The position numbers and the translations under genes were made by a program. DNA of 64,000 nucleotides from Escherichia phage phiEC1. The DNA lies in the sequence record KY608965.1; one strand, 5' to 3'. A model generated the notes under the pieces. That model was not told the origin of the DNA. It worked only from the letters and a program-made list of their open reading frames with translations, and did not search any database. The stretch's first letter is position 1; each line of letters opens with the position of its first letter. Shown one piece after another: positions 1,085-10,485 of the stretch.

Positions 1085-1183
1085 TGTATTTTTCCATAGG
1101 CATCATTATATTTTACTCATGTTTAAAAGATAAGATGATTATATACTAAGAGTTATACAGCATTTAAAACTTTAAACAGGCTC

Positions 1184-1732
1184 TTAACGAGCCCATTTGA
1201 TAATTTCTGTAATCAAATTATTACGTTCGCTTGCATTAAATCCTATAACTTTGTTAGCACCATCATGATTAAGTAATTGATACGTTTGGATTTTGTTATG
1301 AATTGCAAACTCTTCAAAATGTGAAATGACTGTATTAAAACCGAATGAAGACAAAGTAATAAGGTCGTCTTCAAAACTTTCAGTCATTTCATTACGTGTT
1401 AAAATAATTGTGAACACATCATGGTTTTGGCAAAGACGAACATAATCCTGTTCATAAACATCAAGAACCGAGTCCGCATCTTGTCGAATACGTCCATAAA
1501 CCCAGTTACTAATATATCCACGGTCTAACAGATAAATCTTAGTAGGGTCTAAATAATTCAACATCGTTTCGAAACAGCCAACTTCATTTCGAGACTTAAC
1601 ATCGAAACGTCCATCAACTGTTCGTTTAGGGAAATCAATCTTTACATATCTTTCACTAATTTCCATTATGTCATTAATGAAAGTTGTTTTACCGGCATTA
1701 TCCGGGCCGTCTACTAAAATAATTTTAGCCAT
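1184..1732 (-). CDS. P-loop small-molecule/nucleotide kinase-like protein
   Basis: 182 aa; Walker A ILVDGPDNAGKTT near N-terminus, shikimate/gluconate/dNMP-kinase-like size; function inferred. Confidence 0.55.
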   Translation of the reverse strand: MAKIILVDGPDNAGKTTFINDIMEISERYVKIDFPKRTVDGRFDVKSRNEVGCFETMLNYLDPTKIYLLDRGYISNWVYGRIRQDADSVLDVYEQDYVRLCQNHDVFTIILTRNEMTESFEDDLITLSSFGFNTVISHFEEFAIHNKIQTYQLLNHDGANKVIGFNASERNNLITEIIKWAR

Positions 1733-1733
1733 T

Positions 1734-2633
1734 TTATTCCTCGATTACGACATCTTCGTATTTAGGTATATTATACGGCGAAGAAATTAAAGCATTAAAG
1801 TAGATGAACTCACCAAGACCTGGATGGAATACTTCTTCAGGATTTTCGAAATATTGAATCTTCGGACGTCCTTTAAGAATTTGATAGTACTCAGTTTTAG
1901 TTGGATTAAAAATTCGAATCAGCGCTTCTTCAGGATACTTATTTCTGTCGAAGCTATTATTTGGATCGGTTATATAAAGCGGTTGACCTAATTGAATTGC
2001 GCATTCAACCACTTGTTCAAAACGATAACACGGGTCACTAATTCGAAATGGATGAAAAATACCATCTAGATGAATAGGAGCCAAATCACCTACAAGACGC
2101 TGCATGACGGAAGGACGTATAACTTTCTGCGTTACGATAATCTTATTACCATCGGCACCTGCGTTAACCAGCACTTCCTTTTGACGTTCATTCAACACAG
2201 TAGTTTGAAGTGAACGATTAACAGACAACATGTCGGTTTTTAAGAATTCATCAATATAAAAACGTGGTTTATTAGGGTCTGCAGTGATATTGAAATTGAA
2301 TTCTACGTCAAAAGCGCCATCATATCCAGTGATATCTGTGATTAGAAAATCACAATCATAATAAGCAATTAATGAATCAACCACAAATTCATTTTCAGAC
2401 CAAAAATATTTACGAGTGTTATATGCGTTATCTTTATACCATAATGGAACAAACTTAAATTCCGGGAAAAGACGTTCACATTCTTTAATATCAGATGCAT
2501 TACGTGGATATGTAATCACATCACCTGGATTAGCACGGTGCAAATGAAGTTGGAAGTTGCCATCCTTAAGGATAGCATACTGTCCAGTTTCATAAGACCG
2601 CATACTCAAGATAGGTACGCGGAAAATAGCCAT
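1734..2633 (-). CDS. hypothetical protein, candidate DNA sugar-transferase of the modification module
   Basis: 299-aa ORF, stop/start coupled to neighbours; no motif I can assign; role inferred from position only. Confidence 0.5.
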   Translation of the reverse strand: MAIFRVPILSMRSYETGQYAILKDGNFQLHLHRANPGDVITYPRNASDIKECERLFPEFKFVPLWYKDNAYNTRKYFWSENEFVVDSLIAYYDCDFLITDITGYDGAFDVEFNFNITADPNKPRFYIDEFLKTDMLSVNRSLQTTVLNERQKEVLVNAGADGNKIIVTQKVIRPSVMQRLVGDLAPIHLDGIFHPFRISDPCYRFEQVVECAIQLGQPLYITDPNNSFDRNKYPEEALIRIFNPTKTEYYQILKGRPKIQYFENPEEVFHPGLGEFIYFNALISSPYNIPKYEDVVIEE

Positions 2634-3349
2634 TAGTCAAGGAATCCTTTAACATAATCAAAATCACGTTCAAACACATGGGCACTTACCATGGTATGAG
2701 TATAATCACCAACTTCTACACCGCATTCGTTAGCGATATAATGAAGTAATTTTCCTTGGAGATAAAAATCCAACTGCATAACAACAGCACAGTTCTGAGA
2801 ACGCATATGGCAGTGGGTATAAAGCTTACCATCACGAATATAATAAGTCACTGAGTCAGTACATGGATATTCAAGTGTTTCGTCCGAATCAAGCAAAGCC
2901 TGATCAGAACTTTCTAGAATTTGGAACACAACTCTTCGAGAGTTAGGTTTCTCTTTAAGTTCTTTTAGAAGAGCTGGTAATTGGGCCACAATGCGAGGAC
3001 CATAGAAAGTGTTGAAGTTCGCAGGCAAAGCATCTGATTTTGGTTTAGAAATGAATTTAGCGACATTAGGATATGCCTTAAACGCTTCTTCTGCATCAGT
3101 ACCACCAGAAATCATAAACTTCCAGAAGTCTTCGGCATATTCATAAGAGATGCGGTTAATACGTGGGTCGGTCATTTTGAACGATGATGGATTGTCAACA
3201 ACTACTGTCATGGACCCGATTTCATTACAACGTCCAATACGAGAATCAGTTACGAATTCCGGGTTTTCTAAAATTTCACGATTGACTGCTTTAAATGCGG
3301 TTTGAAAATCTGCGGCTTTGATATATTTCATTGTGTTATGTTTTCCCAT
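2633..3349 (-). CDS. 42: deoxycytidylate hydroxymethylase-like (thymidylate synthase fold, gene 42 family)
   Basis: 238 aa; motifs KPNSRRVVFQ, YPCTDSVTYYIRDG, HMRSQN...QLDF, HVFERDF parallel T4 gp42 NPDSRRGIMIY, MCTNTVQYLIRD, NMRSND...RNDY, HVYSRHF; Asp at the pyrimidine-specificity position. Confidence 0.75.
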   Translation of the reverse strand: MGKHNTMKYIKAADFQTAFKAVNREILENPEFVTDSRIGRCNEIGSMTVVVDNPSSFKMTDPRINRISYEYAEDFWKFMISGGTDAEEAFKAYPNVAKFISKPKSDALPANFNTFYGPRIVAQLPALLKELKEKPNSRRVVFQILESSDQALLDSDETLEYPCTDSVTYYIRDGKLYTHCHMRSQNCAVVMQLDFYLQGKLLHYIANECGVEVGDYTHTMVSAHVFERDFDYVKGFLD

Positions 3350-3391
3350 GTTTACCTCAATACAATTTATTATATACTCAATTCATAAAGC

Positions 3392-3631
3392 TTATTTGAA
3401 TTTCTTGGCAATGTTGATATAACGTAAAGCTTCAGAATCTATACTTCCAAGAACACTATGAAGAAATGCATCAGCGTAGTATTCCAATTGAACAGGTTCT
3501 TTAATCACTTTAGCCGCTTTGGTTTCAAACAGGCCCATCAGGGCCTTTTTAAGAATTTGTTCATTAGTGTTCAGTTTTATAGTCAAAATCTCTTCATTAA
3601 GTTGGTGGTTAAAAGTTTTTCTAGAAATCAT
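3392..3631 (-). CDS. hypothetical small protein
   Basis: 79-aa ORF; start overlaps upstream stop (ATGA coupling). Confidence 0.45.
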   Translation of the reverse strand: MISRKTFNHQLNEEILTIKLNTNEQILKKALMGLFETKAAKVIKEPVQLEYYADAFLHSVLGSIDSEALRYINIAKKFK

Positions 3632-4797
3632 TCCGGGTACCTCAAAGCGTCATCAGAGTTAGTTATATCAATAATAGATATAGAGTTTTCTGATAACCCA
3701 TTTTTAGATAACTGACGTTTATAATATCTTTCACAATATGTACACGTCGTCCCGCAGATTTCATTAGCACAATCGAAATCTGGATGTCTGAACCACCTTT
3801 TTTCTAAAAAGCCATCTAACAAAGAGGTTTCAATATTTACTGTATGTGAAAACTCAGTTTCGTTTTCAAGAGTGAAAATAGTCTCTAAAGGCTTCCACAG
3901 TTCTAACAAATTACCTTCAAACTTTTCAGAAGCGTATGCTTCAAGAACTTTCAAAATGTAGTCTGTGCTACCTGTACGTCCTGAAACTTTGAATTGAGTG
4001 ATACCAATATCATTATAAAGTTTCAAATCTTGAGGACGAACAAAACGAGTTCTCAACCAGTTAAATGGGTCTGTATCACGAGCTTTAATACAGTGCTGCA
4101 TAGGATATCCGTTTAAGGATTTAGCATCATCAGCTGTAACATCAGTACTATGGAAAATATAGCAAGAGTCACGATAGCTACAATGTGTTGTATACCCTTT
4201 ACCAGCATTAGAACAGAACTCATTTACAAGAACTTCAAATATTATATTGTTCTTATTGCAAAACTCTGCTGCACGCTTCAGGAAAGAAACTGAACGGTTC
4301 TTATGAATTCCGCAACAGACTTTTTTGATGTTATATTGGTCGTGCAAGTATTTGATTTGAGTTACGGCATCAACATGTAGAATTGTTGAAACTTCAATCT
4401 CAATATCTTTATTGACTTCACGAACAATTTCCATAACAACAGGGTTAGCGATAGTAATACGCCATACGCCTATTGACCAAAGATACTGAACATAATCCTG
4501 AATAGCTTTCTTCTTCCACTCAACTAGTTCTCTTTTTGAACCAGGATTTATCGTGTTGAGTGTATAGTTAAAGCAAATACCTAATTCGTTACAACGTTTA
4601 ACGTAGTCTTCTAACATCTTTTTGTCAACGTCAGGAAGCCTAAAATCAGGTCTGGCTGCTACAAAAGCCATTTCTCTTGTAGAGCCATATACTTCGTTTA
4701 TCAAGCTATTAGGATAGGTTTTATTGAGCTCTACGATTTTATCAAGAAGAGCTAAATCAAAATTCGTTCCGATTTTAAAAGTATTCATTTTTTGCAT
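3628..4797 (-). CDS. cysteine-rich hypothetical enzyme (possible TIM-barrel/Fe-S protein)
   Basis: 389 aa; Cys cluster CCGIH...FC...CSNAGKGYTTHCSYRDSC and C-terminal CANEICGTTCTYCERYY; weak resemblance to U32-family proteins, not confirmed. Confidence 0.55.
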   Translation of the reverse strand: MQKMNTFKIGTNFDLALLDKIVELNKTYPNSLINEVYGSTREMAFVAARPDFRLPDVDKKMLEDYVKRCNELGICFNYTLNTINPGSKRELVEWKKKAIQDYVQYLWSIGVWRITIANPVVMEIVREVNKDIEIEVSTILHVDAVTQIKYLHDQYNIKKVCCGIHKNRSVSFLKRAAEFCNKNNIIFEVLVNEFCSNAGKGYTTHCSYRDSCYIFHSTDVTADDAKSLNGYPMQHCIKARDTDPFNWLRTRFVRPQDLKLYNDIGITQFKVSGRTGSTDYILKVLEAYASEKFEGNLLELWKPLETIFTLENETEFSHTVNIETSLLDGFLEKRWFRHPDFDCANEICGTTCTYCERYYKRQLSKNGLSENSISIIDITNSDDALRYPE

Positions 4798-4844
4798 CTC
4801 GCGTTAATTGATGCGATGGTTTTTTGCAGGTCTTACTTAAATTA

Positions 4845-5231
4845 TTATAGATTCGGTTTATATGATTTAAATGTTTCGAATTCGCCTTTATTCATAAGAG
4901 CTTTGAATTCGTCAGGACGCATAGCTTTGTCGTCGATAATCCAATCATATACTGGTTTATGTGTTAGCAAATTATGATACTTCAAACCAATGTTTTCCAA
5001 GTTCTGAATCAGACTTGGGAGAATGTCAATTGCTATACGTCCAGGACCTACTGACTTCATACCGCGTGCAGTATAAAGCGTTATAGTATGCCCTGCATCA
5101 TACAGGGCATTAATGGCGGTCACCATTTCGACGTCTGGTTTGAAGTTCACATAATCACGATTGTTATTCCACTCTGTTATACAATCATCGACATCAAAAC
5201 AAAGATTAAGCATGTTTTCTACACGGTGCAT
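4845..5231 (-). CDS. HAD-superfamily phosphatase
   Basis: Motif I FDVDDCIT, motif II ITLYTAR, motif III HKP, motif IV WIIDDK; ATG at 5229-5231 overlaps upstream TAA. Confidence 0.65.
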   Translation of the reverse strand: MHRVENMLNLCFDVDDCITEWNNNRDYVNFKPDVEMVTAINALYDAGHTITLYTARGMKSVGPGRIAIDILPSLIQNLENIGLKYHNLLTHKPVYDWIIDDKAMRPDEFKALMNKGEFETFKSYKPNL

Positions 5232-6916
5232 TAGATTCGTTCCCATTGATGAGTGATATCGCCACCGATTGGACGATAGGAAACACCAGTTTCTTTATCA
5301 GTTAGTACCCATTTACCAGGATTTTTTGTAATCAGAGTAGCCGTTACAGGTTCTGCTACGTCATAACTAATAGAGCCGTCTTGAAGTACACGGCCCATGT
5401 TACGTAATTGCTTAGTCAGAAGTTCCATACCTTTATAATATGCGGCAACCGCTTTAAGTGGATTATTCTTGAAATAACCACCTAATGCAATCCAAATAAT
5501 TGCTACAGCCAAATGATGATACTCGTTAAACGAACTCATCTTTCCATATTTGTAAACTAATGGATTGATGTTAATAGTCACATTACAAGTTGTTTCATCA
5601 ATAGTAAACTGTCCCCAGGTCGGATTAGCATTGAATTCATCATAACCTGAAACAGCATAAAGCACTTTAGCTTCATCATACAATTTTGGCCCGTAAATCT
5701 TGGTTTCACCAAAATATCCACGAGGGTCGATAAACTTGACTTCGCCGTTATCAGTAATCATAGTATTACTGAAGTTTGGGTCACCGTGAATAACAGAGTA
5801 CTGTCCCTGAGAACGGTTATGATAACGAATAAGATGTTCTAAAGCTTGTTTCAACATTGGCTTCAGACGTCCAATCTTAGTGTAGTTCACGTGTGTGATT
5901 TTACCAAATGAATCAATCAATGGCTGAATGCTTTCACAACGATCAATAACTTTCGTATAGAACTCTTTAGTGAAATCACGGCGAACAGTTTCAGGACTTA
6001 CAAAATAAGTGTCTGTGCTGAATTTCAGTGCATCTAAAATTGCATCAACAATTTGTGGACGAGCAAGACTTGATTTGGATTTAATATATTCAAATGCCGG
6101 CTTACCTTTAATACGTTCCATTTCAAAATTATTTTCATTTACCGAAACTAACTGAGGAACTGAATCTGATTTCACTTTCAAATACCATGAAATCTCATCT
6201 TTTTGAAGAGCTCGACCTTGTTCGGTTAACGCGAATTTAGTTACAGTTTCTTCGCCAATTTCAACTGCATTAAAACTACGATTAAGTTCACGAACTTCAT
6301 GAGCTTTTTCAAGTTTAGGCATATCACCTAAATCAATTAGATTCATAAGCTCTGATTTATTGAATGCACTGCCGTAAAGGAATTCTACGAAATCACGTCC
6401 TTTGCAGTATTCGTGAATTTCCTCGTCAGTAGAACCCATGTAGAATTCCCAGTCTTTGAACTGATAAATTCCTACAACATTACCGCCTGTTGAACCTACG
6501 TTAGTGATATTTTCACCATCGAAATTATATCGACATTCATCACCCTTAACATAGATTGCGTTAACATTCCAAGACCATGAACCAAAATCAGGAATAATAT
6601 CACACCAGTTAACAATTACATTATGGCCATCTAAATCTTTGTATAATTTAGCAAGAGCATAAGCAGAACCATACGCTTCATCAACTGTACGAATAGTCAC
6701 ATTGAACCCTTCTTGCTCACAATAAGCTCGAACAGTTTCAGCAAATTTTGAATGAACTACTACAATAATTTCATCTGCGCCAAGGTCAGAATAAATTGTA
6801 TACAAATTGCTCAGAATAGTGTCTTGCTTATAGTTCACAAGAACTTTTGGAATATGGTGAGTAATTGGATATAAACGAGTTGCCAATCCAGCACCAAGAA
6901 TAACAGCTTTTTTCAT
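5231..6916 (-). CDS. bifunctional sugar-1-phosphate nucleotidyltransferase / APH-like anomeric sugar kinase
   Basis: N-terminus VILGAGLATRLYPIT (RmlA/GlmU-type G-x-G-T-R-L-x-P-x-T); C-terminus VIHGDPNFSN...FIDPRGYFG (aminoglycoside/choline-kinase-type catalytic loop); SD GAGGA upstream. Confidence 0.8.
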   Translation of the reverse strand: MKKAVILGAGLATRLYPITHHIPKVLVNYKQDTILSNLYTIYSDLGADEIIVVVHSKFAETVRAYCEQEGFNVTIRTVDEAYGSAYALAKLYKDLDGHNVIVNWCDIIPDFGSWSWNVNAIYVKGDECRYNFDGENITNVGSTGGNVVGIYQFKDWEFYMGSTDEEIHEYCKGRDFVEFLYGSAFNKSELMNLIDLGDMPKLEKAHEVRELNRSFNAVEIGEETVTKFALTEQGRALQKDEISWYLKVKSDSVPQLVSVNENNFEMERIKGKPAFEYIKSKSSLARPQIVDAILDALKFSTDTYFVSPETVRRDFTKEFYTKVIDRCESIQPLIDSFGKITHVNYTKIGRLKPMLKQALEHLIRYHNRSQGQYSVIHGDPNFSNTMITDNGEVKFIDPRGYFGETKIYGPKLYDEAKVLYAVSGYDEFNANPTWGQFTIDETTCNVTININPLVYKYGKMSSFNEYHHLAVAIIWIALGGYFKNNPLKAVAAYYKGMELLTKQLRNMGRVLQDGSISYDVAEPVTATLITKNPGKWVLTDKETGVSYRPIGGDITHQWERI

Positions 6917-6957
6917 GTTGAAGTCCTCATTGGTAAGTAGGTGTATTGTACACTATT

Positions 6958-7101
6958 CTAGTTAAAGCATTCATACTTTGCTTGTAGTCCAATCATAATC
7001 CATCCAATTACAAGTGTTGGAATCATTACTGGAGCCGTTAAGCTCCAGTAGATAGTCATGACAAGCATCAATAGTAAAAGTCCTATTGTTATTGCTTTCA
7101 T
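6958..7101 (-). CDS. small hydrophobic protein (47 aa), not in ORF track
   Basis: MKAITIGLLLLMLVMTIYWSLTAPVMIPTLVIGWIMIGLQAKYECFN; ATG overlaps the SIS-gene TGA (ATGA). Confidence 0.35.
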   Translation of the reverse strand: MKAITIGLLLLMLVMTIYWSLTAPVMIPTLVIGWIMIGLQAKYECFN

Positions 7102-7733
7102 TGTTCGCCTCGTAACATGGCACCTAGTGCACCGCCTGGATGGAACTTAAGGAAGTCATTAGAGGTAAATCCACGTTCAGACGAAAGGTTGATAGCAAAC
7201 GTATCGATAAGCGCTAACAACAATGTAGTGGACATGGTCGGAGCCAGAGAATTCTCGTCAACCTCTACCGCGATACCGGTACAGAACGTATAATCAAAAA
7301 GAGCTTCGTATTCTTGCGGAATGTCAGGGTTACAATGTAACAGAATCTGTTTAACCTGAGGACGAATCATACGAAGATGTTTAGCAACACCTATCATTTC
7401 TTCAGTCTTACCAGAACGACTGATGTGAACTAATACATCATTGGGTGCAATAAATCCTGCATCCCCATGAGAATAATGCCCAGTGTTCAAGTACATACTC
7501 GGGATACCGAGTGAAGCAAAAGTCTCTGAAGCTTTAGTTGCGATATTAGCGTTCTTACCAACACCTGTAATAATTACACGACTTTCATAATTACTCAGTC
7601 CAGGGCGACGAAGAGTTTCAAGAATAACATTATATCGGGCAGAGTTTTGACTAATTACTTTAGCCATAGTGGCAAGAGATGAAGCTTGTTTTACGATTGC
7701 GTCAATAGCGATAGTGATTGGTGTAGTTTTCAT
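7098..7733 (-). CDS. SIS-domain sugar-phosphate isomerase, KdsD/GutQ-like arabinose-5-phosphate isomerase without CBS domains
   Basis: GVGKNANIATKASETFASLGIPS, HISRSGKTEE, LAPTMSTT, FHPGGALG match the KdsD SIS domain (GMGKSGHIG..., ISNSGES, LAPTSSTT, HPGGALG). Confidence 0.8.
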   Translation of the reverse strand: MKTTPITIAIDAIVKQASSLATMAKVISQNSARYNVILETLRRPGLSNYESRVIITGVGKNANIATKASETFASLGIPSMYLNTGHYSHGDAGFIAPNDVLVHISRSGKTEEMIGVAKHLRMIRPQVKQILLHCNPDIPQEYEALFDYTFCTGIAVEVDENSLAPTMSTTLLLALIDTFAINLSSERGFTSNDFLKFHPGGALGAMLRGEQ

Positions 7734-7773
7734 ATTTCTCTCATTTAATTAGTTGGCCGTCCTTGGCATTATA

Positions 7774-10485
7774 TCAAAAATCGAACATATCGAACAGAGA
7801 TGCTTTCTTCTCGTAATCGAGTTTCGCTGCTGATGTGAATCCTTCAAGTGGTTTAATAAATGTCTTCTCAAGGAGAACAGTGTAGTCCATCCAATGAAGT
7901 ACGTCGTCTTTAATTAAATCTGTGATTTCAGTACCAGAAGGCCATGCGATACATTTATCACCGAACGGGTTTCCATCACGTAAAGGCAGAACGTATACCT
8001 TTTCGCCTTCTACAACTTGTGGAGCATCAATATTACCTTTGATAGCCCGGTTATATGTCAGAATTCCACGAATATGGAACGGACATTTAGGACCAGGGAA
8101 TCCACCAACGTCATATTTAGCAATGTTATTCGCAGAAGATACCGACGCGATGCTAATATAATTCAATTGACGGAATTCTTTTTCAAACTCTTTAAAATAT
8201 TCTTGTAATGATTCTTCACCTTCTTGAAGCATACGACGAATACATTCTTTAAGAGCTTTCTGTACTGCTTTAGGGGTCGAAGATTTCTGAGTCTCTAGAC
8301 CCATGATTTTGAGTTTAGGCTCAGCGTAACGAGTACCTTCCATATCCCACACGTTTAATGCGTAACGTTTCTTACCAGTCCAGAATCCACCAATACCTTT
8401 AGAACCGAGCGGAGGACCAGCGATAGCTTCTCGGTCCATGAACATTAAGTGTTGTTTATTGTTCATGTATTCACACATTTCACGGAAACCTCTATCAATA
8501 GCTGGTTCCATACGTTCACGTGCAAACTTATCTAAGAAGTCTACCCAATGGTTGGTATCACGGAATTTAGATTCACCAACCTTATCAATAATTTTATCTG
8601 CAGATACATAAATGGAGTCTGTATCACCATATAGAACGAAAGCTTCACCTTCTGTACCACAAACTTCATTCAGATATTCATTAACTTTACGTTCAATCCA
8701 CTGTAAAGCCATTTGTCCAAATGTTGTGATTGCAGTAGCATTACGCAAATCATAATAACGGAACCAAACGTTGCCAAGTGCACCATAAAGTGAGTTGATA
8801 AGCAATTTACGGTTAATTTGTGCAGTCATACCTGCAACTTCAGTACGTTGAGCTCTAAACAACATTTCATTAAGAGATTTAGCAGACAACTTTTTAATCT
8901 TTTCTTTAATCTCGTCAGTGAAGTCGAAACGATAATCAACATCTAATGGTTCGTCAACAGAAAGATTAGGATTATGCAATGCCTCTTTAATTATTTCACC
9001 ATTACGTTGAGCCGCAAGCATGTAACCTTTATGTTCTTTACGTTGATTAAAGACCTTAGTGATTTCAGTTGGAACTACACCGTCACGGTCTTTATAATAC
9101 ATCATGCCGTTAGGAGAGCAACTGTACACATCTGAAGGACGTTCAGCGATTGCGTTAATATAATCATGCAGTGGAGCTACTTTAAACGTTCCTGCTATTG
9201 TTTCTGGGCTAATATTCACTTGGCGAATAATACTTGGATACAGAGATGTAAGGTCGAAACTCATTACATATTTGTATCGATTTGGAATAGGTTCCTTAAC
9301 AAAAGCGCCAGGATAAGGTTGAACCGGGTGAGAACGACCTTGTGGAATCACCTTGTTTTGTTCTTTAAGGCTATTAAAAATAATAGCATCCCATGTTTTA
9401 ATTGGGCTAAACACAGATTGAATCTGTATCTTAGCATAATAACCCATGTCCAAACTCAAGTTGATGAACTGACGCTTAGCATCAATTTGCAATACACGAT
9501 ACACGTCGATAATGTTATAAGAAATATATCGTTGGTGATTGCTTTCACGAAGCTTAGAAATAGGACCGTCATATTTCAGTTTACCGACATTCAATTCAAA
9601 TTCTGAAATGTAATCCAGAGAATACGACGGTTGATTGGTAAAAGAGAATTTTTTGTAAAGGTCAATGTAATCAAGAACAGAGATACCGAACAATGTAATG
9701 ATTTCACGAGAACCATACATGTTTTCGATAACTTTAACACGAGTTTTACGATGTGGTGATAAACGTTTCGCAGTAGATTCGCCAAAAATATTCTTGATTC
9801 GGTTATACACATATGGAATATCAAATGACTCAACGTTCCATCCAGTCAAAATGACAGGAGTTTTCTGTTGCCAGAAGTTGAGATATTCCATCAACAATTC
9901 TTTTTCGTTATCGAACGGCATATAAATGATTTTATCAATAATTTCGGATGGAACTTCATCACCACCTTGTTCTTGAAGCTTAGCTGCAATTTCGATAGAC
10001 CATTCTTCTACATTACCATATGGAGAATTCAATAGATCAAATACGTAGAACCTGTCGTCAATTGAGTCATAATGGGTGATAGCATCAATCGGATGTTTTG
10101 CTTGTGACGGCTCAGGAAACCCATCCGGAGATGTTACTTCGATGTCGAAGTTAGCCACACGAATTTTTGTATGGTCGTATTTGATTTCATAGTTATAAGT
10201 GTCAGACAAATACGCTAATTTGAAATCGTCCATGCCAAGTGCTTCAAGACCGATATCTTCCATGCGTTTAATCCATTGAGACGCATCACGCATATTAGCG
10301 AACAACTTACGAGTACACGGCTTACCGTAGATATCGAAATATTTCGTAGCTTGACTTTCCGGACAATGAGCAAACAGTGATGGTTTATATTCTACTTCAC
10401 GAGTACGTTCACGGCCATTAGAATCGATGTAACGTTCAAAAATTGAATCACCAATCTGTTCAACCGTTAAGTAAAATTCTTTCAT
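7774..10485 (-). CDS. 43: DNA polymerase (family B) gp43
   Basis: 903 aa; MKEFYLTVEQIGDSIFERYIDSNGRERTREVEYKPSLFAH...; exo and pol motifs (FDIEV, YGDTDS); T4 synteny. Confidence 0.97.
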   Translation of the reverse strand: MKEFYLTVEQIGDSIFERYIDSNGRERTREVEYKPSLFAHCPESQATKYFDIYGKPCTRKLFANMRDASQWIKRMEDIGLEALGMDDFKLAYLSDTYNYEIKYDHTKIRVANFDIEVTSPDGFPEPSQAKHPIDAITHYDSIDDRFYVFDLLNSPYGNVEEWSIEIAAKLQEQGGDEVPSEIIDKIIYMPFDNEKELLMEYLNFWQQKTPVILTGWNVESFDIPYVYNRIKNIFGESTAKRLSPHRKTRVKVIENMYGSREIITLFGISVLDYIDLYKKFSFTNQPSYSLDYISEFELNVGKLKYDGPISKLRESNHQRYISYNIIDVYRVLQIDAKRQFINLSLDMGYYAKIQIQSVFSPIKTWDAIIFNSLKEQNKVIPQGRSHPVQPYPGAFVKEPIPNRYKYVMSFDLTSLYPSIIRQVNISPETIAGTFKVAPLHDYINAIAERPSDVYSCSPNGMMYYKDRDGVVPTEITKVFNQRKEHKGYMLAAQRNGEIIKEALHNPNLSVDEPLDVDYRFDFTDEIKEKIKKLSAKSLNEMLFRAQRTEVAGMTAQINRKLLINSLYGALGNVWFRYYDLRNATAITTFGQMALQWIERKVNEYLNEVCGTEGEAFVLYGDTDSIYVSADKIIDKVGESKFRDTNHWVDFLDKFARERMEPAIDRGFREMCEYMNNKQHLMFMDREAIAGPPLGSKGIGGFWTGKKRYALNVWDMEGTRYAEPKLKIMGLETQKSSTPKAVQKALKECIRRMLQEGEESLQEYFKEFEKEFRQLNYISIASVSSANNIAKYDVGGFPGPKCPFHIRGILTYNRAIKGNIDAPQVVEGEKVYVLPLRDGNPFGDKCIAWPSGTEITDLIKDDVLHWMDYTVLLEKTFIKPLEGFTSAAKLDYEKKASLFDMFDF

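Follow-up and report, generated by a model that had tools for sequence, protein, structure and literature searches.

Two bodies of work describe the systems closest to the locus considered here. The first concerns phage RB69, whose DNA contains mono- and di-arabinosylated 5-hydroxycytosine, with ether-linked arabinose, and not arabinosyl-5-hydroxymethylcytosine (arabinosyl-hmC), and whose ThyA homolog, gp48, makes 5-hydroxy-dCMP with flavin and O2, as established by activity and 18O2 labelling (2026 paper, PMC13326640). The second concerns the U32 family: UbiU and UbiV, the U32 [4Fe-4S] proteins of O2-independent ubiquinone biosynthesis in Escherichia coli, for which prephenate is the demonstrated oxygen donor, and RlhA and TrhP, which modify RNA and for which the requirement for prephenate is genetic. 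UbiUV works in the presence of O2 too, and "O2-independent" is therefore safer wording than "anaerobic". The mechanism of U32 proteins and the roles of their clusters are still open questions (PMC10990095, PMC11574389). Here we analyze a 64,000-nucleotide stretch of DNA of Escherichia phage phiEC1 (KY608965.1; hereafter, "the window"), in which an initial annotation had singled out two open reading frames (ORFs), encoding a 299-amino-acid (aa) and a 389-aa protein, as candidate DNA glycosyltransferase genes; both ORFs exist exactly as annotated (Table 1). Over the 6.7-kb stretch 1100-7800, identity to Escherichia phage p000y and to ~150 other Mosigvirus genomes is 97.9%; the window is that of an RB69-like T-even phage, and the interval is part of its arabinosyl-5-hydroxycytosine DNA hypermodification module. 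We find that the 389-aa protein, the counterpart of RB69 gp50, belongs to the U32 family. The reading that we favor, and regard as probable, is that the 299-aa protein is a glycosyltransferase (GT) that arabinosylates 5-hydroxycytosine, and that gp50 is a prephenate-dependent, O2-independent pyrimidine C5-hydroxylase that likely acts on dCMP. This mechanism for gp50 is apparently unreported: full-text searches of the accessible literature found nothing relevant on U32 proteins together with phage 5-hydroxycytosine or with chorismate mutase.

The initial annotation found no motif that it could place in the 389-aa protein and offered a likeness to U32-family TIM-barrel enzymes as weak. The first statement was mistaken and the second too cautious. 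The protein matches the U32 domain (Pfam Peptidase_U32, PF01136) over residues 97-289 with 42.2 bits against a cutoff of 22.4 (E = 7e-11), an hhalign comparison with an alignment of E. coli UbiU, UbiV, TrhP and RlhA gives a probability of 96.2%, and fold comparison of an AF2 model (pLDDT 90.5) identifies a U32 TIM barrel; single-sequence and profile searches with the protein returned no PDB match, and the structural relationship was found by fold comparison only. The results do not support the suggestion that this protein is a DNA glycosyltransferase. Translation probably starts at the second ATG (M4, position 4788), giving 386 aa, because homologs begin MNTFK and the curated coding sequence of phage Bas46 is 386 aa long. 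Across T4-like genera, the U32 protein is the most conserved protein of the module (81-89% identity, versus 71-83% for gp48 and 48-72% for the GT), a level of conservation that we count as evidence of selection in favor of the proposed role.

Comparison with known U32 proteins shows a shared core and a distinct architecture. The phage protein shares the Pfam U32 domain and the TIM-barrel fold with UbiU/V, with ~19% identity over the aligned core, but it consists of one chain and carries an additional invariant motif, CX4CX3CX2C, at its C terminus, whereas UbiU/V is a two-subunit complex plus UbiT, and its presumed substrate is a pyrimidine nucleotide, whereas that of UbiU/V is a prenylphenol. 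It is not UbiU proper, a candidate identity rejected on the basis of the NCBIfam UbiU score (18 bits, cutoff 440). The only solved U32 structure, that of MK0906 (PDB 5D88), is of an archaeal, uncharacterized protein that comprises the U32 domain alone (247 aa) and has 14% identity to the phage protein.

The cysteine clusters pointed out in the initial annotation are real and far exceed chance expectation. An alignment of 40 family members, extending down to 46% identity, has ten invariant cysteines: C161, C180, C195, C206, C212, C236, C343, C348, C352 and C355. The core spacing is C195-x10-C206-x5-C212-x23-C236, which, as the initial annotation correctly observed, departs from the consensus CX6CX15CX3C for [4Fe-4S] ligands; UbiU itself also departs from it. 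In the hhalign alignment, C206, C212 and C236 align with UbiU C169, C176 and C232, and the UbiU C176A substitution results in loss of both the Fe-S cluster and activity; C169 and C232 are, we assume, cluster ligands as well. Judged by these aligned positions, the phage protein may bind an Fe-S cluster. The remaining four invariant cysteines form the C-terminal motif C343-x4-C348-x3-C352-x2-C355. Read as C-x4-C-x3-C-x-Y/L-C, this motif holds the radical-SAM-like pattern CX3CX(aromatic)C, a resemblance that we retain as speculation only. Radical SAM enzymes carry CX3CX2C in a loop that follows beta-1 of a partial TIM barrel, and they match the Radical_SAM profile; the phage protein has no Radical_SAM Pfam match, C348-x3-C352-x2-C355 lies after the barrel (motif at residues 343-355 of 389), and a radical SAM reading of it is not supported.

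The cysteines also bear on the database names "peptidase" and "collagenase", under which the protein appears in most genome annotations and which have a precedent in that some U32 members were historically described as collagenases. That the phage protein is a real, collagenase/PrtC-like peptidase is extremely unlikely: characterized U32 members are hydroxylation factors, ten invariant cysteines are typical of metal or Fe-S sites, and the gene keeps its position within nucleotide and DNA-modification operons and is linked to genes for prephenate supply.

The linkage to prephenate supply was found both in isolate phages and in distant homologs. An AroQ chorismate mutase (CM) gene, Pfam-valid (34.7-46.1 bits, cutoff 27), lies at most ~370 nt downstream of the U32 gene in ten phages (KLB31, Virsaitis27, CIP9, PM2, PSTRCR_127, TG1, phiP4-3, PEi26, X20 and Thanatos-1), from Kanagawavirus, Winklervirus, Mosugukvirus, Gualtarvirus, Tegunavirus, Bragavirus and Shewanella phage Thanatos. 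Six of the ten have a CM gene that overlaps the stop codon of U32, and the other four have one or two small ORFs in between. The phage CMs keep the catalytic residues, with R8, R25, K36, E49, S71 and Q75 invariant in the phage CM alignment. In Thanatos, the U32-CM pair is at another place in the cluster and thus moved as a unit. All 51 isolate phage records with this CM are from genera that carry U32, with CM adjoining the U32 gene or the ThyA homolog wherever annotated, and none of the 51 is from an Acinetobacter phage, Dhakavirus or Mosigvirus. To extend the comparison, distant U32 homologs from metagenomes and IMG/VR were clustered at 90% identity, yielding 30 lineages, and features were scored within +/-10 kb. 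On distant contigs (40-58% U32 identity), the U32 gene is adjoined by a DAHP-synthase-CM (DAHPS-CM) fusion in L047, L049, L050, L052 and L061 (Table 1), by a standalone CM in L053 and L056 (Pfam) and in L058, L059, L062 and L064 (profile search), and by a DAHPS-family gene alone in L016; together, neighbors of these kinds are present in 8 of the 30 non-redundant lineages. The fusions, with DAHP synthase N-terminal and CM C-terminal, are 320-372 aa long and are encoded by large, uncultivated phages, on contigs of up to 199 kb with a GC content of 22-38%. Prephenate is the oxygen donor of UbiU/V, and the CM linkage of phage U32 mirrors this; the adjacency of CM and DAHPS-CM genes provides indirect support for the use of prephenate by the phage protein.

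In the window, the slot that holds CM in most related phages is occupied by a 79-aa ORF that contains no cysteine. The title of the initial annotation counted three enzymes in the interval, and its text covered two; the two ORFs are real, and the third, this 79-aa ORF, fits no enzyme family, with no Pfam match at E <= 10 and no NCBIfam match at E <= 1. These null results, together with an hhalign probability of 0.5% against the phage CM alignment, rule out a diverged CM. Protein-database homologs with at least 81% identity derive from Mosigvirus-like sources, and many are truncated, at 47-58 aa; in Yersinia phage TG1 and Pectobacterium phage PM2, a more distant homolog is encoded between U32 and CM. 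Since the 79-aa gene coexists with CM in TG1 and PM2, Mosigvirus lost CM rather than mutating it. With CM lost in Mosigvirus and Marfa, prephenate would come from the host.

The distant U32 homologs also show the operon context of the U32 gene. They are encoded in phage contigs amid replication and nucleotide-metabolism genes (Pol III alpha, dCMP deaminase, UDG). Within +/-10 kb, a dNMP-kinase-like gene co-directional with U32 is present in 27 of the 30 lineages, a co-directional homolog of the 299-aa GT in 23, an AfhE homolog in 12, an arabinose-5-phosphate isomerase (API) homolog in 9, and a thymidylate synthase (TS) of the 5-hydroxy-dCMP-synthase type in none. The usual arrangement is one of overlapping kinase-GT-U32 genes; in three lineages, the GT homolog and the kinase-like protein are fused in one ORF of ~550-610 aa (L045:2594-4411, L054/L066:5237-7057, L060:5354-7006), which ties the kinase to the DNA glycosyltransferase. 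A TS-superfamily hydroxylase hidden in the distant loci was sought and rejected: a jackhmmer search seeded with E. coli ThyA, which recovers all T4-like homologs, recovers among the distant loci only a protein in L038, and this protein has the canonical thymidylate-synthase signature L143/D169/N177. Membership of the U32 family, operons with no other hydroxylase candidate and absence from phages of strict aerobes (see below) together suggest that hydroxylation by the U32 protein would be O2-independent.

The same loci separate U32 from arabinose synthesis. U32 and GT occur together in loci with neither API nor AfhE (L017, L019-L021, L040, L043, L044, L048, L051 and L065), and U32 is therefore not tied to arabinose synthesis. 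This bears on the sole published label for RB69 gp50, "sugar or heterocycle reductase" (PMC13326640, Table 1, which gives no other function; the Discussion of that paper states that the enzymes of the two other known pathways of pyrimidine hydroxylation are unrelated and cites the RlhA and TrhP papers without a tie to gp50). A role on the sugar side, for example in modifying the pentose or the NDP-sugar, would accord with this label, with the position of the U32 gene between the HAD phosphatase and the ThyA homolog, and with the frequency of TIM-barrel folds among sugar-phosphate enzymes. However, U32 accompanies GT and kinase in many loci without an API or AfhE homolog, Acinetobacter and Dhakavirus phages have the pathway without U32, the published pathway from ribulose 5-phosphate to NDP-arabinofuranose is complete without U32, the CM linkage has no rationale in pentose chemistry, and sugar reductase activity is known for no U32 member; we judge a sugar-side role very unlikely.

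A further alternative is that the U32 protein is a prephenate-dependent hydroxylase of a polymer, acting on cytosines in replicated DNA or on host or phage tRNA or rRNA, as thought for TrhP (tRNA ho5U34) and RlhA (23S rRNA ho5C2501). The phage protein belongs to the same family as these proteins and shares with them the same proposed chemistry, that is, prephenate-dependent, O2-independent C5 hydroxylation of cytosine or uracil. Both are the characterized pyrimidine-directed U32 enzymes, and both act on RNA polymers; T4-like phages carry tRNA genes, and a DNA-level role fits most of the evidence. The CM linkage backs prephenate use and is silent on substrate. However, RlhA and TrhP are larger proteins (453 and 653 aa) with the canonical CX6CX15CX3C and long C-terminal regions, whereas the phage protein is without these regions and ends in its Cys4 motif, and its gene is in DNA-precursor operons: tight, often overlapping arrays in which it is accompanied by a dNMP-kinase-like gene and a homolog of the DNA glycosyltransferase, next to replication genes, across the 30 lineages. 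We accordingly consider action on a polymer rather unlikely and favor action on a pyrimidine deoxynucleotide.

Two genes from the U32 gene in the window is a gene for a 238-aa ThyA homolog, which the initial annotation called a hydroxymethylase. The 238-aa protein matches PDB 9IQC/9IR2/9IQU over its full length (E = 9e-161) and has E143, N169 and D177 (E. coli ThyA numbering), the signature described for 5-hydroxy-dCMP synthases (PMC13326640). We conclude that it is a 5-hydroxy-dCMP synthase, not a hydroxymethylase. The framing of the module in terms of hydroxymethylation and hmC DNA is outdated, and, the RB69 base being arabinosylated 5-hydroxycytosine, the assay on hmC DNA proposed in the initial annotation has the wrong acceptor; hmC-based assays should give way to assays on 5-hydroxycytosine DNA. 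The known synthases (RB69 gp48 and those of HY126 and DLP3, gp80; ThyA superfamily, FMN and O2) have the same product and pathway as proposed for U32, but they are unrelated to the U32 protein in fold and cofactor and need O2, and their role is proven by experiment, whereas that of the U32 protein is proposed. The proposed pairing of gp48 with the phage U32 protein resembles that of UbiI/H/F, the O2- and flavin-dependent counterparts for the same reaction, with UbiU/V. TrhP likewise has an O2-dependent alternative, TrhO.

The distribution of U32 is consistent with a link to oxygen. No U32 match was found in any Acinetobacter phage, though the GT is present in 57 Acinetobacter records and the AfhE homolog likewise in 57, and we infer from this absence in phages of strict aerobes an oxygen logic for O2-independent hydroxylation. 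Among 185,579 species genomes, the U32 subfamily is present in nine: mostly bins of obligate anaerobes, plus one isolate of Phocaeicola faecalis.

The 299-aa protein is, in contrast to the 389-aa protein, well described as a DNA glycosyltransferase candidate, although the initial annotation misplaced its gene: the position between the ThyA homolog and the sugar-activation genes holds for the 389-aa ORF only, and the 299-aa ORF is flanked by the ThyA homolog and the dNMP-kinase-like gene. Its predicted structure has two Rossmann-like domains and an inter-domain cleft, that is, a GT-B fold. It has no Pfam match at E <= 0.1 and no meaningful NCBIfam match, placing it in no curated GT family, and single-sequence and profile searches found no PDB relative, leaving fold comparison as the method that worked. 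The structural matches are GT-B (GT4-like) Leloir enzymes, namely sucrose-phosphate synthase (6KIH), BshA and PimA, and T4 alpha-glucosyltransferase (1Y6F); the 299-aa protein is 7-12% identical to these matches and ~100 residues shorter than typical GT4 enzymes, and its predicted acceptor is 5-hydroxycytosine (ether-linked pentofuranose), not 5-hydroxymethylcytosine. The GT assignment in the initial annotation is correct but is already in print as a prediction, in which this family is the first DNA arabinosyltransferase (PMC13326640). An alternative is that the 299-aa protein is an NDP-pentose pyrophosphorylase and that a separate gp3-type GT4 enzyme (the solved HY126 GT, 9IQZ) performs transfer to DNA. 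The Thanatos homolog TH1_063 is reported to have UDP-xylose pyrophosphorylase activity in vitro (PMC12838424), structure determination in HY126 was done on that different glycosyltransferase (9IQZ), and the accessible literature contains no direct transferase assay of the 299-aa family. Set beside the GT-B fold, we regard this alternative as distinctly unlikely, and we describe the 299-aa protein as the core GT-B glycosyltransferase of the module, with predicted arabinosyl transfer onto 5-hydroxycytosine in DNA.

In the mechanism that we propose, the U32 protein would hydroxylate a pyrimidine deoxynucleotide, most likely dCMP, at C5 and independently of O2, and the oxygen atom would come from prephenate, as in UbiU/UbiV and as proposed for RlhA and TrhP. 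The analysis itself establishes the folds, the family membership, the conservation of the cysteines, and the linkage and distribution of the genes; from these we infer the substrate, the use of prephenate, the binding of Fe-S and the role in anoxia. The U32 protein would provide a second, O2-independent route to 5-hydroxy-dCMP beside the FMN/O2-dependent ThyA-like synthase, redundant with gp48 in air and replacing gp48 in anoxia, in parallel with E. coli UbiI/H/F backed up by UbiU/V. The 5-hydroxy-dCMP would then be phosphorylated by the dNMP-kinase-like enzyme of the module, incorporated by the polymerase and glycosylated. On the sugar side, the adjacent API, AfhE-like and HAD enzymes would make NDP-arabinofuranose, and, after replication, the 299-aa GT-B enzyme would move arabinofuranose from the NDP-sugar onto the 5-OH of 5-hydroxycytosine in DNA.

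Several observations weigh against this proposal. The accessible literature holds no biochemical or genetic evidence for gp50, and direct hydroxylase activity has been reconstituted in vitro for no U32 protein. Aerobically, gp48 and the dNMP kinase suffice for 5-hydroxydeoxycytidine in E. coli DNA, with U32 not required (PMC13326640). The consensus CX6CX15CX3C is not reproduced, and no more than three of the four ligand positions of UbiU have an aligned counterpart. A six-frame scan finds no CM in the window, and the DAHP_synth_1 family takes in KDO8P synthase, which uses arabinose 5-phosphate, making the DAHPS-only neighbors in L016 and L036 ambiguous. The distant contigs were viewed over +/-10 kb only, so that a ThyA-type hydroxylase could lie elsewhere on them. 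Finally, the absence of U32 from Acinetobacter phages may go back to one event in the phylogeny and not to selection; ~40 Escherichia phage records with the pathway give no U32 match (176 versus 136 records), their host being a facultative anaerobe; and Dhakavirus, in which presence of the pathway without U32 was confirmed directly for JS98, is a counter-example to a strict need for U32. Because pathway-bearing Acinetobacter and ~40 Escherichia phage records give no U32 match, U32 is accessory.

The genes of the module are on the minus strand and read from the DNA polymerase gene (7774-10485) down to the thymidylate-kinase-like gene (Table 1). The protein of RB69 gp45 type is termed "nucleotide kinase" in Table 1 of PMC13326640; the role of the HAD phosphatase, conversion of arabinofuranose-1,5-bisphosphate to arabinofuranose-1-phosphate, is taken from the literature on HY126 AfhF, and that of the AfhE-like protein likewise from the literature.

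Table 1. Genes of the module in the window, in order of position, and DAHPS-CM fusion genes on distant phage contigs.
Feature	Length (aa)	RB69 counterpart	Position	Strand	Basis or remark
dNMP/thymidylate-kinase-like protein	182	gp45	1184-1732	-	PHROG 761 thymidylate kinase, 2e-45
GT-B fold glycosyltransferase, predicted first DNA arabinosyltransferase on 5-hydroxycytosine	299	gp46:47	1734-2633	-	
5-hydroxy-dCMP synthase (ThyA homolog; FMN- and O2-dependent)	238	gp48	2633-3349	-	Pfam Thymidylat_synt, 1e-15
79-aa ORF	79	gp49	3392-3631	-	overlaps U32 stop codon by 4 nt
U32-family protein	389 (probably 386)	gp50	3628-4797	-	
HAD-type phosphatase, AfhF-like	133	gp51	4845-5246	-	PHROG 1238
Bifunctional sugar-1-kinase/NDP-sugar pyrophosphorylase, AfhE-like	561	gp52:53	5231-6916	-	Pfam NTP_transferase N-terminal, kinase-like matches C-terminal
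Hydrophobic small ORF	47	orf054c-like	6958-7101	-	kept between AfhE-like and API genes
Arabinose-5-phosphate isomerase (API)	211	gp55	7098-7733	-	Pfam SIS, 8e-10; PHROG 5670 arabinose 5-phosphate isomerase, 5e-116
DAHPS-CM fusion ORFs			L047:8411-9433; L049:9-971; L050:7302-8357; L052:8332-9387; L061:11085-12203		next to U32

Two features of gene order concern small or mobile elements. The 47-aa ORF is strongly hydrophobic (MKAITIGLLLLMLVMTIYWSL...) and overlaps the stop of the API gene; an ORF is annotated at the matching position in Bas46, KLB31 ("contains transmembrane domain") and Virsaitis27, and a membrane micro-protein is odd within a cytoplasmic nucleotide-sugar module. In Winklervirus and Kanagawavirus relatives (L003:4352-4990, L013:852-1490, L014:852-1490), a gene for a homing endonuclease of the Seg type is inserted at the junction of the HAD phosphatase and U32 genes; the window has none at this junction.

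Individual distant loci show variations on the operon. A radical SAM/SPASM protein is encoded inside or beside the kinase-GT-U32 operon in four loci (L020:7972-9000, L021:7980-9011, L015:1-249, L073:10151-11185), and in L073 two U32 paralogs flank its gene; its presence may point to one more modification step or may just reflect life under anaerobic conditions. On the Phocaeicola faecalis isolate scaffold (L080:2996-7089), U32 is preceded by genes for a 425-aa fusion of guanylate kinase and SAM methyltransferase, for an unknown protein of 267 aa and for a phage protein of the GP88 family; by analogy with ho5U -> mo5U in tRNA, this cassette could carry out nucleotide hydroxylation and then O-methylation instead of glycosylation. 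On a 61-kb metagenomic phage contig (L017; 8001-10000, 13073-14179), U32 overlaps a TAGT-type (TET/JBP-associated) glycosyltransferase, a homolog of the 299-aa GT is also upstream, and genes for a dUTPase/dCTP-deaminase and a UDP-galactopyranose mutase are nearby, a gene set that suggests a galactofuranosylated hydroxypyrimidine.

We tentatively extend the proposal beyond the window, with confidence that falls a little short of even: the U32 protein would be the founding member of a class of phage prephenate-dependent, O2-independent deoxypyrimidine C5-hydroxylases, would act as the only hydroxylase in many uncultivated phages, whose hosts are probably anaerobes, and would have a second cluster at its C-terminal Cys4 motif. 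If the proposal is correct, DNA modification would gain its first U32 enzyme and the building of DNA bases its first case of an organic oxygen donor, and U32/prephenate hydroxylation would reach from quinones and RNA to DNA precursors. The C-terminal Cys4 cluster would stand in for the cluster of the partner subunit in UbiU/UbiV, giving a single-chain enzyme with a soluble substrate; such a small phage enzyme, acting on an inexpensive soluble compound (dCMP or dUMP), would suit a first in vitro reconstitution of U32 chemistry. In the kinase-GT-U32 operons of uncultivated phages, U32 would be the sole hydroxylase, and CM or DAHPS-CM fusions would be an auxiliary supply of oxygen donor; that is, phages would carry shikimate-pathway genes to supply the oxygen donor. 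These operons mark a large set of uncultivated phages, probably with unknown O-glycosylated or otherwise O-substituted pyrimidines, which matter for the evasion of restriction, for artefacts in sequencing and for phage therapy. In enteric T4-like phages, the U32 protein would be the anoxic twin of the flavin/O2 5-hydroxy-dCMP synthase, which would explain full protection of gut phage DNA by arabinosyl-5-hydroxycytosine where there is no O2 for the only known 5-hydroxy-dCMP synthase.

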